Source: a virus (taxonomy: Duplodnaviria; Heunggongvirae; Uroviricota; Caudoviricetes). From it: DNA of 9,192 nt. The position numbers and the translations under genes were made by a program. The DNA lies in the IMG/VR virus record IMGVR_UViG_2671180366_000013, one strand, 5' to 3'. The notes below the pieces were generated by a model. The model searched no databases. It was not told where the DNA came from and saw nothing but the letters and a program-made list of their open reading frames with translations. Positions 3,056 to 9,192 of this stretch are shown here, one piece after another (position 1 is the first letter of the stretch; every line of letters begins with the position of its first letter).

Positions 3056-3137
3056 GATATACCTTAAACAAATAATACTTATTACAGATTAACTAAAAAT
3101 ATTAGCGCTCTTCTACTAACGTTACATTATCAAAAAT

Positions 3138-4577
3138 TTAGCTACGACCATATCGGTCCTGAAAACGGATAACATCGTCTTCTTCTAAATAAGATCCAGA
3201 ACGAACTTCAATTAAATCAAGAGGAATTTTCCCTGGATTTTCCAAGCAGTGTATTACACCAAGAGGTATGTAAACAGATTCATTTTCGCTAAGAATCTTA
3301 GTTTCAGAACCTATAGTCACCCTTGCAGTTCCAGAAACTATGATCCAATGTTCTGCCCTATGATGGTGCATTTGTAAAGAAAGTCCTTCACCAGGATTTA
3401 CTGTTATACGTTTGACCTGATAACGCTCCCCTGTGTCAATGGAATCATATTTACCCCAAGGACGATATACTTCGCGATGAACATAATGCTCGCTACGACC
3501 TGAATTTTTAATTTGTTCTACTATTTTCTTTACATCCTGAACTTTATTTCTCTCTGAGACAAGAACAGCATCCTTTGTTTGGACAACAACTAAATTTTCC
3601 ACTCCAACTGTAGCAACAATTCCCGATTCGGCATATATGAAAGAATTCTTTGTTTCATGAGAGAAAATATCCCCAACTATTACGTTGCCGTCTGAGTCTT
3701 TATCATTAATTTCCCAAAGAGAAGACCATGAACCGACATCACTCCAGCCAGCATCCATTGGAATAACAATTGCGTCTTTTGTTTTTTCCATTACAGCGTA
3801 ATCAATTGACTCTTCAGGGCACTTAGAGAAAGAACTTTCATCTAAACGCACAAAATCAAGGTCAAAGTTCGCTGAAGCAATTGCTTTTTCACAAGCGGAT
3901 AAAATATCAGGCCGAAATTGTTTAAGTTCCTCTATATAACGATTTGCACTAAACAAAAACATACCGCTATTCCAATAATACTCACCGGAAGCAAGATATT
4001 TAGTGGCTGTCTCATGATTTGGCTTTTCAACAAATGATGACACTATAAATGCATCCGAATCTTCCTGATTAATATATTGTCCTCGATGTATATAACCATA
4101 ACCAGTTTCTGCTTTGTCTGGAATTATACCAAATGTTACCAATTTCCCATCAGCAGCGTATGGAATTGCCGATCTAACAGCGTTACAAAATTTTTCTTCA
4201 TCGTGTATAACGTGATCTGCAGCCAGTACGAGCATAAGATCATCTGCACTTTTATCAGACTTAGACATCAGCAACGCCGCTAATGCAATTGCAGGGGCAG
4301 TGTTACGCCCAACAGGCTCAAGGATGATATTCTTTGAAGTCAATCTATCGATTTTTCTAAGCTGTTCAGCAACTATAAAGCGGTATTGTTCATTACAAAT
4401 GACATAAGGGTTGGTACAATCCAAACCATCCAGACGATTAGCCGTTGTTTGAAGCATGGTATGACTACCGATTAGGCTAAGAAATTGTTTCGGATAGAGA
4501 ATTCTTGATAGTGGCCACAACCGACTGCCTGAACCACCAGCCATAATGATAGGTGTAATAATTTTATTATTGTTCAT
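3138..4577 (-). CDS. manC: Mannose-1-phosphate guanylyltransferase (GDP-mannose pyrophosphorylase), 479 aa; alternative start at 4589 gives 483 aa
   Basis: N-terminal nucleotidyltransferase motif [14 protein letters not shown] and C-terminal cupin-type domain (…[19 protein letters not shown]…), the architecture of type II ManC/CpsB. Two in-frame ATGs (4589 and 4577): the second has a weak GAGA SD upstream and gives an N-terminal length matching CpsB-type proteins; the first would overlap the upstream glycosyltransferase by 23 nt. TAA at 3140-3138. AT-rich. Confidence 0.92.
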
Positions 4578-5772
4578 ATAATTTCTCATCTAATGTATTC
4601 ATTAAATTGGCAACTTTTGATTCCCAAGAAAAATTATTTTCTACAAAACTACGGGCATTTTCAGCCACTTCAGTATAACGATTATAATCGTAAATTATTT
4701 CTCTTAGTACGTTTTTATATTGCTCTACTGTATCTGCAACAAAAATTTCGCTACCTGATTTTGCATTAATACCTTCATAACCAATGCTAGATGTAATACA
4801 TGGTAAACCTAAAGCCATGTATTCAAGAATTTTATTTTGTACGCCTGCTCCAAGACGAACAGGACATATACCTATATGCCCTGTAGAAGCGGAAGAATTG
4901 ATATCATCAACAGTACCTAAAGCAATTGTATTTTTAAATGAATTTAATATATTTTTATTAGTTTCTGAGATCTTACCAATCACTTTAAAAATAATATTAA
5001 ACTCATCATACAAGCAAGGTAAAATATTCTTAGCAAAATGTTTTGCAGCATCCATATTTTGTAAAGAATACATATTTCCGATAAATATAAGTTCCACAGG
5101 CTTATCGATTTTTATTTCTCTTTTTATATATCTCAAGGCTGATGTATCAACCCCATTATTGACTATATGGATATTACTGCCCGGATTAGGGTAGAGATAG
5201 TCACGGTCTACGGATGAAATAAAAGTGGTCAAATCAAAAAGATTCGCCACAGAACGTTCATATGATTCTAATCTTTTTTGTTCCAGAGAATAAATAATTG
5301 CACGCAAACTTTTTTTACTTGCTAATTTTTTAACGCGACTGTAATTCAAAGATATTGCATCTGTCATATCAAGAATTTTGAACTTGTCTGTATCCTTAAC
5401 ATAATCAGCAACTCTTATCAGATGACAAAATACTGCATCGCATTGTTTAATTAATTTATTGTATTTATTCTTAAATGTGTCCGATTGATAATAAGCAATT
5501 TGCAACGGTTTTTGCGTAACCAAAGCTTTTAATACATTATAATATGATTTATATTTTGGTAGATAGACACGATGAATTTCTTTGAAGACCGAGTCATTTA
5601 TATTTATTTCAAGTTCTAGTGGTTGATCACATAAGCTCAGAAGAATAAGATCATATTTTTTGGAAAGTTCTTTACATAACATATAGACTCTTAATCTATC
5701 CCCTCCAATGACAGGGTAGGGAAAGCGAGGTGTAAGAACCAGTATTTTTTTTCTCTGCTCTGATTGATTCAT
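4567..5772 (-). CDS. Glycosyltransferase, GT-B fold / GT4 family (donor unknown; possibly a mannosyltransferase given position next to manC), 401 aa
   Basis: N-terminal domain motif [17 protein letters not shown] and C-terminal donor-binding motif [19 protein letters not shown], both typical of Glycos_transf_1. The ORF track starts at a GTG (5829) that would overlap the epimerase gene by 37 nt; the first ATG (5772-5770) leaves a 20-nt gap after the epimerase stop and has AAGG upstream, so I call the start at 5772. TAA at 4569-4567. Confidence 0.85.
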
Positions 5773-7962: not shown

Positions 7963-8980
7963 TAAATGCCGCCGTTAAAATTTCCGCATATCTCTCTTCA
8001 GAAAAAAGCTCACGCTTGCTATAAATAGTTTGTCTCAAATGATAATATTTTTCATTATCAAGACTAATTAATTTGTAGGCTACTTGTGCTAAATCTTCTT
8101 TATTATTGGCAATAAATACGCCAGGAAAACTTTCTGCATACAACTCTCTAATTGCACCAACATTATAGCCTATCACAGGGCAACCACAGCATAGCGCTTC
8201 AATAGTAACCAGCTCATATCCTTCATAATAGGACGGTAAAATAAGTACTCTGGATTTCTTAAATATTTCTGGCATTTTCGCATAGGGGACAGCAATGCTG
8301 GTCAGAACATTATTTAGCGAAGCAAAATTTTGTGGGGCGGGAATACTTGAAACTAAATGGAAGGAAGTATCTGGCAGATTTTTACATATGTAATACAGAT
8401 CATCTATTCCTTTTCCTTTTTCCAATCGCCCGACAAATGTCACATATTCTGCTTCATTAACATCAGTGTAATCAAATTGTGCAAGATTTATAAAATTTCG
8501 AACAACTTTGATTTTATGTGAATTAATATTGTAAAGCTCATTCCATTCACTTTTAACCTTATTTGAAACAGCCCAGATATTTTTTGAAAATGCTCCAGCC
8601 CAACGCTCATAGAAAGATAAAAGACCACTGCCAGACAACCGATTAGGTTTTTTATTCATGACTGTTTGAAAATAACATTTCATATTGCCATGAGCTATTA
8701 AGATGTCATTCCTATAAAAAGGAGAACAATAGCCATGTGCAATAACTTTAAACGTCACGCCACGTAATTTTTGTAAGGTTAAATAAAGAGAAACTAATAT
8801 TGGATAAAGTGCTACTTGTATTTTTTTGTTACGAATTTTGTTAGAAATTTTGAAGTATGTTTTATCAAGTATAATGACTTTAACCCCCAAATTTTTAAGA
8901 ATGTTACATTGTTGGGCAACAACCCTTTCCACCCCACCTTGCCCTCCTGAACCATTATACGCGGCGATATATATAATCAT
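7949..8980 (-). CDS. Glycosyltransferase, GT4 family (retaining), 343 aa
   Basis: N-terminal GSGGQGGVERVV and canonical E-x7-E motif EGYELVTIEALCCGCPVIG. The ORF track start (9031) is a GTG; the first ATG at 8980-8978 gives a typical GT4 N-terminus (MIIYIAAYNGSGG), has GGGAAG about 10 nt upstream, and forms an ATGA overlap with the stop of the upstream ORF. TAA at 7951-7949. Confidence 0.85.
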   Translation of the reverse strand: MIIYIAAYNGSGGQGGVERVVAQQCNILKNLGVKVIILDKTYFKISNKIRNKKIQVALYPILVSLYLTLQKLRGVTFKVIAHGYCSPFYRNDILIAHGNMKCYFQTVMNKKPNRLSGSGLLSFYERWAGAFSKNIWAVSNKVKSEWNELYNINSHKIKVVRNFINLAQFDYTDVNEAEYVTFVGRLEKGKGIDDLYYICKNLPDTSFHLVSSIPAPQNFASLNNVLTSIAVPYAKMPEIFKKSRVLILPSYYEGYELVTIEALCCGCPVIGYNVGAIRELYAESFPGVFIANNKEDLAQVAYKLISLDNEKYYHLRQTIYSKRELFSEERYAEILTAAFNEKK

Positions 8981-9192
8981 TTTAAAAACTTCCCGATAAA
9001 CGACTTCATTTTTAGCAGAACGAATTGACACTGTCGGTAAAATATAGCATGCTTTTGTCCTGAAAGAAGATTCAAATTATCATTATATTTTTTTAAAAAT
9101 CTATAATTATTTATGCAACTTTCGTAATGATATTTTAATCGATTAGCTGTTCTTGCCCCTCCCGTCGCTTTTCTTGGAGGTAAATTTATTAA
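8977..9192 (-). CDS. 3' end (C-terminal 71 codons) of an upstream O-antigen cluster gene truncated by the window edge; function unknown (candidates: Wzy, Wzx or another transferase)
   Basis: The minus-strand frame with codon tops at 9192, 9189 … is open for 71 codons from the window edge to a TGA at 8979-8977. I checked every codon; none is a stop. The TGA overlaps the ATG of the next gene (ATGA). In DNA this AT-rich a 71-codon open frame is unlikely by chance. Tail reads …KYHYESCINNYRFLKKYNDNLNLLSGQKHAIFYRQCQFVLLKMKSFIGKFLK*. It is absent from the ORF track, presumably because it has no in-window start. Confidence 0.4.
   Translation of the reverse strand, partial: LINLPPRKATGGARTANRLKYHYESCINNYRFLKKYNDNLNLLSGQKHAIFYRQCQFVLLKMKSFIGKFLK

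Follow-up and report, generated by a model that had tools for sequence, protein, structure and literature searches.

The 9,192-nucleotide stretch from IMG/VR record IMGVR_UViG_2671180366_000013, referred to here as the window, almost certainly represents the gnd-side two thirds of the O-antigen gene cluster of Escherichia coli serogroup O6, a Wzx/Wzy-dependent system. This assignment is drawn from sequence comparison. The window and the chromosome of E. coli strain YJ6 agree at 9,192 of 9,192 bases. In YJ6, both wzx and wzy, which lie beyond the window, are annotated as "O6 family".

Identity of the Locus

The block from position 3056 to position 9192 is present at ≥80% coverage in 153 of 5,426 complete E. 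coli genomes and is chromosomal and single copy in every case. Identity to the window is at least 99% in 130 of the 153 carriers and 95–99% in the other 23. Carriers with 99.9–100% identity include strains labelled O6:H16, CFT073, Nissle 1917, and ATCC 25922. An earlier reading of these letters, made without database searches and called here the sequence-only reading, left open whether this gene combination belongs to a described serogroup. These named strains identify it as O6. Compared with ATCC 25922, positions 3056 to 9192 contain four base differences and one residue difference, H327N in the glycosyltransferase here called GT_b. The remaining transferase and epimerase sequences encoded in the window are those of the ATCC 25922 proteins.

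The genes that define the O genotype were examined by lengthening the query across wzx and wzy. The tally was the same as for the 3056–9192 block, with 159 matching records and 153 at ≥80% coverage. The remaining matches consist solely of six manC fragments of 293 bp with 74% identity. Among the complete E. coli genomes matched, none was seen that pairs the window block with a different wzx or wzy.

The gene order in four annotated O6 genomes, including YJ6, is galF-wzx-wzy-GT2-GT4-GT-galE-GT4-manC-manB-gnd-ugd-wzzB-his, where GT denotes a glycosyltransferase. In these four genomes, the PGAP labels are "O6 family O-antigen flippase" for wzx and "O6 family O-antigen polymerase" for wzy. The parts missing from the window, namely galF, the ops/JUMPstart element, wzx, wzy, and most of the GT2 gene, were read in identical genomes. 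Every inspected carrier genome has the cluster flanked by galF and gnd, which agrees with the O-antigen locus position proposed by the sequence-only reading.

The O6 cluster is ordinary and already described. Its sequence, gene order, and polysaccharide structure have all been published, and the value of recognizing it here is practical, for strain typing, and adds nothing new biologically. Among uropathogenic and enterotoxigenic E. coli (ETEC), O6 ranks as a major serogroup, and the probiotic strain Nissle 1917 belongs to it as well. O6A is a component of bioconjugate vaccines against extraintestinal pathogenic E. coli (ExPEC).

Gene Content and Layout

The window contains eight co-directional genes on the minus strand, taken from the open reading frame (ORF) list with starts refined from RefSeq annotation. 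Their coordinates are given in Table 1. The ORF layout and domains are those of seven consecutive minus-strand genes running into gnd, as the sequence-only reading had described. Neighboring genes overlap by 4–14 bp or are separated by gaps of 16–20 bp, as expected for one operon.

The genes match their Pfam and NCBIfam models at levels far above chance, with E values of 7e-136 for 6PGD, 3e-34 for PGM_PMM, 6e-68 for NTP_transferase, and 1.5e-53 for Epimerase. The group 1 glycosyltransferase domains of the cluster have E values from 1e-7 to 3e-18. Several plus-strand ORFs exist within gnd and manB (134–1309, 1458–2039, 1868–2395, and others). These are antisense frames in well-supported genes and were set aside.

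The GC content is 50.6% in gnd and 55.1% in manB. It is 38.3% in manC, 35.5% in the epimerase gene, and 28–33.5% in the transferase genes. The block composed of the transferases, epimerase, and manC (28–38.3% GC) is therefore AT-rich relative to gnd (50.6%), and this part of the sequence-only reading also held.

Table 1. Features of the 9,192-nucleotide window.
Feature	Position	Strand	Remarks
IS1 (insertion sequence) last 18 bases, terminal inverted repeat (reverse complement GGTAATGACTCCAACTTA)	1..18	+	Insertion in the gnd-ugd spacer; outside the O-antigen cluster
Probable intrinsic terminator of gnd	58..88	-	GC-rich hairpin at 66-88, then minus-strand T run (plus-strand A run at 58-65); function inferred
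gnd, 6-phosphogluconate dehydrogenase	116..1522	-	Pfam 6PGD 7.4e-136, NAD_binding_2 3.2e-50; gndA in the annotation of all matched genomes
manB, phosphomannomutase	1685..3055	-	PGM_PMM domains I-IV; NCBIfam CpsG subfamily, 1047 bits
manC-manB spacer, 82 bp	3056..3137	.	GC drops from 55% to about 36-38%
manC, mannose-1-phosphate guanylyltransferase / mannose-6-phosphate isomerase	3138..4577	-	NTP_transferase 5.9e-68, MannoseP_isomer 6.5e-59
GT_a, divergent GT-B (group 1) glycosyltransferase, 401 aa	4567..5772	-	Glyco_trans_1_4 2.5e-14
gne, GalE-family 4-epimerase	5793..6800	-	TIGR01179 galE 3.4e-129
GT_b, divergent GT-B glycosyltransferase, 381 aa	6817..7962	-	Glyco_trans_1_4 29.6 bits
GT_c, typical GT4 glycosyltransferase, 343 aa	7949..8980	-	Glycos_transf_1 2.8e-18, Glyco_transf_4 1.6e-8
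GT2 glycosyltransferase, C-terminal 71 codons of 286 aa	8977..9192	-	Translation to stop codon; gene runs past the window end

manB, manC, and the Borders of the Imported Block

The manB gene shares 95.0% nucleotide and 97% amino acid identity with cpsG of the colanic-acid cluster in YJ6, and the two have the same GC content of 55%. The manC gene shares 64.7% nucleotide identity with colanic cpsB and passes its NCBIfam equivalog model with 861 bits against a cut-off of 859. The manB gene is of the resident, high-GC E. coli type that is common to other mannose-containing serogroups. The manC gene is a low-GC, O6-specific allele whose product makes guanosine diphosphate mannose (GDP-mannose).

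Both manB and gnd are found in non-O6 genomes, including O157, at 96–97% identity, and the matches to these genomes stop at positions 3040–3047. Because manB and gnd are shared with unrelated serogroups, the imported low-GC block ends in the manC-manB spacer. The border of the imported block is exactly position 3056, the coordinate at which the sequence-only reading began its span. That span is correct as a block border but leaves out manB, which was counted among its seven genes.

A second boundary is seen when the window is compared with ATCC 25922. Differences are dense across gnd to position 1904 and nearly absent from position 2819 on. The gnd gene and the 3' part of manB are about 3% divergent from strains of the sequence type 73 (ST73) kind. 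This switch in divergence between about 1904 and 2819 indicates a recombination junction inside manB. Junctions of this kind are commonly seen where an O-antigen cluster has passed from one lineage to another.

O6 Repeat Unit and Proposed Biosynthesis

The O6 structure used here is taken from the literature. The repeat unit contains N-acetylgalactosamine (GalNAc), glucose (Glc), mannose (Man), and N-acetylglucosamine (GlcNAc) and is written as ->4)-D-GalNAc-(alpha1->3)-[D-Glc-(beta1->2)]-D-Man-(beta1->4)-D-Man-(beta1->3)-D-GlcNAc-(alpha1-> (PMC11148006). In a second reported form, the Jann structure, a beta-GlcNAc branch replaces Glc (PMC11148006). The O unit of ATCC 25922 was measured as three hexoses and two N-acetylhexosamines, which is the Glc-branched O6 form (PMC11148006).

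The gene content of the cluster matches this unit. It includes manB and manC, a gne-type epimerase, and four transferase genes for the four linkages that are made by transferases. No ORF for a polyisoprenyl-phosphate hexose-1-phosphate transferase of the WbaP or WcaJ type was found in the window, and none is annotated from galF to gnd. The gap between manB and gnd, where the sequence-only reading had noted the lack of wbaP, is 162 bp long and holds no coding-strand ORF of at least 80 aa. The only nearby gene for an initiating transferase is wcaJ, located in the separate colanic-acid cluster. The wecA gene is a core E. coli gene found in the enterobacterial common antigen (ECA) locus, far from the window. 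Liu et al. 2020 (PMC7685785) count O6 among the O antigens that begin with GlcNAc and place gne inside the O6 cluster. A GlcNAc first sugar together with gne in the cluster points to initiation by WecA, which is the route that the sequence-only reading had deduced from the lack of wbaP.

Synthesis would begin with WecA, encoded elsewhere, loading GlcNAc-phosphate onto undecaprenyl phosphate. GDP-mannose would be supplied by ManB and ManC, and UDP-GalNAc (UDP, uridine diphosphate) by the GalE-family epimerase Gne with its small Cys gatekeeper. The four transferases would then assemble GalNAc-(alpha1-3)-[Glc-(beta1-2)]-Man-(beta1-4)-Man-(beta1-3)-GlcNAc. Wzx would flip the unit over the membrane, Wzy would polymerize the units through the alpha1-4 linkage (the fifth linkage, between units), and WzzB would determine chain length.

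The Epimerase and Its Predicted UDP-GalNAc Supply

The best PDB match of the epimerase is the Y299C mutant of E. coli GalE (1LRK), which scores above the wild type. The match is full-length with an E value of 1e-108. Cys298 of the epimerase aligns with Tyr299 of E. coli GalE, and its sequence SCWADA stands opposite ACWADA of the mutant. The alignment to E. coli GalE over residues 1–335 includes GGAGYIGS, SSSATVYG, and YGTSK, so the GxxGxxG NAD motif, the catalytic Ser, and YxxxK are all present.

Human GALE has a Cys at the position equivalent to Tyr299, and E. coli GalE with the Y299C change accepts N-acetylated substrates. The Cys gatekeeper in a GalE-family background supports a Gne role, that is, UDP-GalNAc production. 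The gne product is accordingly named here for its predicted reaction, the formation of UDP-GalNAc from UDP-GlcNAc, in which the small gatekeeper would leave room for the N-acetyl group.

Glycosyltransferases

The three complete transferases, GT_a, GT_b, and GT_c, each pass a Pfam group 1 model. The sequence-only reading called them three GT4 genes. Each is a GT-B group 1 protein, but the full GT4 signature, including the canonical EX7E motif, is found in GT_c only.

GT_a scores 54 bits to Glyco_trans_1_4 and falls under the cut-off of Glyco_transf_4. It has a sub-threshold match to the NCBIfam model TIGR03087 and no sequence match in the PDB. Its motif has an Ala where EX7E begins with Glu.

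GT_b is the least typical of the transferases and, like GT_a, passes only the Glyco_trans_1_4 model, with a score of 29.6 bits that is barely above the 27-bit cut-off. It has no NCBIfam match, and no PDB sequence match was obtained with either the single sequence or the GT_b family profile. In its motif, GSGMKTKIAE, a Ser occupies the position of the first EX7E Glu, and this Ser is nearly invariant in 38 members of the GT_b family. The AlphaFold2 model of GT_b has a mean confidence (predicted local distance difference test, pLDDT) of 94.2 and a GT-B fold, with MshA, BshA, and GlgM as the nearest structures at 12–14% identity. The model thus confirms the GT-B fold, a fold that does not itself settle stereochemistry. 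Relatives of GT_b with 53–59% identity are found in Salmonella, Citrobacter, and Enterobacter. A scan of a species-representative genome collection returned no relative of GT_b; the method used sees close relatives only, and E. coli is a single genome in that collection.

GT_c scores 66.5 bits to the group 1 model, and both GT4-type Pfam models are above their cut-offs. Its EX7E motif is EGYELVTIE. GT_c shows weak similarity to the retaining enzymes GlgA, BshA, MshA, and PglJ/PglH.

Paralogy between GT_a and GT_b is undetectable by BLASTP (E = 0.41). Where GT4 enzymes have EX7E, the two have in common the motif G-[SA]-G-x3-K-I-x-E. A comparable motif with a Lys occurs in the ALG1 beta-mannosyltransferases of eukaryotes.

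The fourth transferase is annotated as GT family 2 where it is full length, in the identical genomes. Its NCBIfam matches are of the GT2 type and include the beta-1,3-glucosyltransferase PglI at 5.5e-18. GT2 is an inverting family with a GT-A fold, whereas GT4 is a retaining family. Nucleotide-sugar donors of this kind are alpha-linked, and beta products therefore need inverting enzymes. Three of the transferase-made linkages are beta and one is alpha, and the cluster encodes one GT2 enzyme only. From the O6 structure and this gene count, we infer that at least two of the three GT-B enzymes are probably inverting and are not classic retaining GT4 enzymes. The lack of the first EX7E Glu in GT_a and GT_b agrees with this reasoning.

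Candidate roles can be proposed for each transferase. GT_c is likely the retaining alpha-1,3-GalNAc transferase, as its sequence suggests, and GT2 is a likely candidate, by its family matches, for the transferase that adds the beta-1,2-glucosyl branch. Motif and fold arguments make GT_a and GT_b the likely candidates for the inverting beta-mannosyltransferases that add the two beta-mannoses. No assignment of the O6 transferases to linkages was found in the accessible literature.

Alternative Explanations

Certain points weigh against the O6 assignment and the pathway built on it. The O6 type of this strain is a prediction from its genes. The genes that define the O genotype, wzx and wzy, are outside the window and are known only from genomes identical to it. 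The O6 reducing-end sugar is written as alpha-GalNAc in PMC8244359, as opposed to GlcNAc, or one GlcNAc and one GalNAc in the unit, in PMC11148006 and PMC7685785. The GalNAc in PMC8244359 is probably a typographical slip. The assignment of transferases to linkages was made by motif and fold arguments only, and the first EX7E Glu is no universal marker of retaining chemistry.

The alternative that survives best, though it is improbable, is that the genes specify the second O6 subtype, which has the beta-GlcNAc branch of the Jann structure, and not the Glc-branched form. Two O6 structures have been published (PMC11148006), the subtype is not formally assignable from sequence alone, and a 2025 paper found no description of the genetic basis of the O6 subtypes (PMC12274568). 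However, ATCC 25922 has the Glc form, and the transferases and epimerase of the window match those of this strain except for H327N in GT_b. The allele group that is diverged by about 1.6% (the E. coli W derivatives and B-766, described below) is a more natural candidate for the second subtype.

Less probable still is that this strain carries the cluster but does not make a complete smooth O antigen from it. According to a finding cited in PMC6895014, Nissle 1917 has a semi-rough O6 phenotype caused by a point mutation in wzy. The wzy of YJ6 has its own protein accession, and an IS1 copy is located immediately downstream of gnd. Against this, the genes of the window are all intact, wzy of YJ6 has its full length of 1,344 bp, and the IS1 is outside the operon.

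A hybrid cluster or another serogroup, with O6-like genes on the gnd-proximal side only and a different wzx and wzy past the right end of the window, is very unlikely. The window does end inside the GT2 gene, so that wzx and wzy are not directly seen. Mosaicism is a known feature of O-antigen clusters, and the manB-gnd segment is common to other serogroups. The extended query nevertheless returned the same 159 records, 153 of them at ≥80% coverage, and none of the matched genomes was seen to have one part only. With O6-family wzx and wzy in YJ6, which is 100% identical to the window, the hybrid explanation is nearly refuted.

An origin of the genes in a colanic-acid or group 1/4 capsule locus, suggested by the PGAP names "cpsG" for manB and "cpsB" for manC and by the 95% identity of manB to colanic-acid cpsG, is refuted by genomic context, as the block lies between galF and gnd with wzx and wzy, the same genome holds a separate colanic-acid cluster upstream of galF that has cpsB, cpsG, and wcaJ genes of its own, and the nearest relatives of GT_b sit in a Salmonella galF-gnd O-antigen locus, so that the best-match check proposed in the sequence-only reading did not overturn the O-antigen reading.

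The gnd End, IS1, and Regulatory Signals

The O-antigen locus is bordered downstream by gnd, a housekeeping gene. The hairpin that follows it was found by a terminator scan and has 8 base pairs, 7 of which are G-C. The adjoining A and T runs were read directly from the sequence. A terminator consensus scan of the window returned 6 sites, compared with 6.6 expected by chance, and the gnd hairpin is the only plausible one. A promoter consensus scan of the window returned 27 promoter-like sites, compared with 27.9 expected. The Rfam scan of the window at gathering thresholds gave no match. The repeat search of the window gave merely short, low-identity pairs typical of AT-rich DNA.

The IS1 sequence at the start of the window sits beyond the gnd terminator and outside the operon, and it interrupts no gene. 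Among the best 12 of 3,864 matching records, YJ6 alone has the IS1 junction at base 1, and the other 11 matches start at base 19. In the YJ6 annotation, an IS1 transposase ends at the junction that corresponds to the window start. The window is thus probably derived from YJ6, a strain from Myanmar, or from one closely related to it.

A single ops element (GGCGGTAG) was observed in the galF-wzx spacer of YJ6, 64 bp upstream of wzx (L003, 22506–22513, beyond the window). This is the expected position of the JUMPstart site. It would fit the common mode of transcription under RfaH, in which the entire operon is read from a promoter beyond the window.

Comparison with Related Clusters

The E. coli O6 reference strains CFT073, Nissle 1917, ATCC 25922, and ETEC O6:H16 share the gene set, gene order, and chromosomal location of this cluster. 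Nothing of substance differs between these strains and the one studied here, apart from about 3% divergence in gnd and the 3' part of manB and the IS1 beyond gnd in this strain.

Two alleles of the O6 cluster were observed. One is that of ETEC O6:H16, CFT073, Nissle 1917, and ATCC 25922, at 99.7% identity or more, and the other is a group at 98.4–98.5%. The second allele is found in the E. coli W derivatives KO11FL and LY180 and in strains B-766 and AQ15. Its gene order is identical, and its wzx and wzy are also of the O6 family. The nucleotide identity of 98.4–98.5% over the cluster corresponds to 3–12 amino acid changes per protein. The second allele of GT2 differs by the adjacent changes P168S, F169I, and V170I, which lie beyond the window (GT2 at L001, 14922–15782).

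The two alleles may correspond to the Glc- and GlcNAc-branched subtypes. If this is true, the P168S/F169I/V170I changes in GT2 would be a candidate donor-specificity switch. The combined proposal, in which GT_a and GT_b are inverting beta-mannosyltransferases of GT-B fold and the two alleles are the Glc and GlcNAc subtypes, is put forward as a rather doubtful one. If it is true, GT_a and GT_b would represent a poorly characterized bacterial class marked by G-[SA]-G-x3-K-I-x-E.

The O6 gne product has both the catalytic motifs and the Cys gatekeeper of group 2 UDP-hexose 4-epimerases, such as human GALE and the GalE Y299C mutant (1LRK). Compared with the housekeeping galE of the gal operon, gne is a separate, low-GC paralogue within the O-antigen cluster.

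A galF-gnd cluster of Salmonella enterica (L004–L006, for example, GCA_025208505.1) contains wzx, wzy, GT2, GT_c, GT_b, manC, and manB in the O6 order. Its proteins share 53–65% amino acid identity with those of O6, with 87.5% for manB. Like the O6 cluster, it has a low GC content and no wbaP. It differs in that a 262-aa GT2 protein replaces GT_a and gne of O6, and a gne homologue (55%) adjoins galF. About 2 kb of this cluster (3572–5567) is without a called gene. Judged by its sequence and gene order, the S. enterica cluster is homologous to that of E. coli O6 but has diverged from it.

The rfb cluster of Salmonella groups B and D (LT2) is likewise low in GC and Wzx/Wzy-dependent, with manC-manB on its gnd side. 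In groups B and D, the last gene, between manB and gnd, is wbaP, which encodes a galactose-1-phosphate transferase, and the repeat unit starts with galactose. In O6, manB is located directly before gnd, and the unit would start with GlcNAc through WecA.

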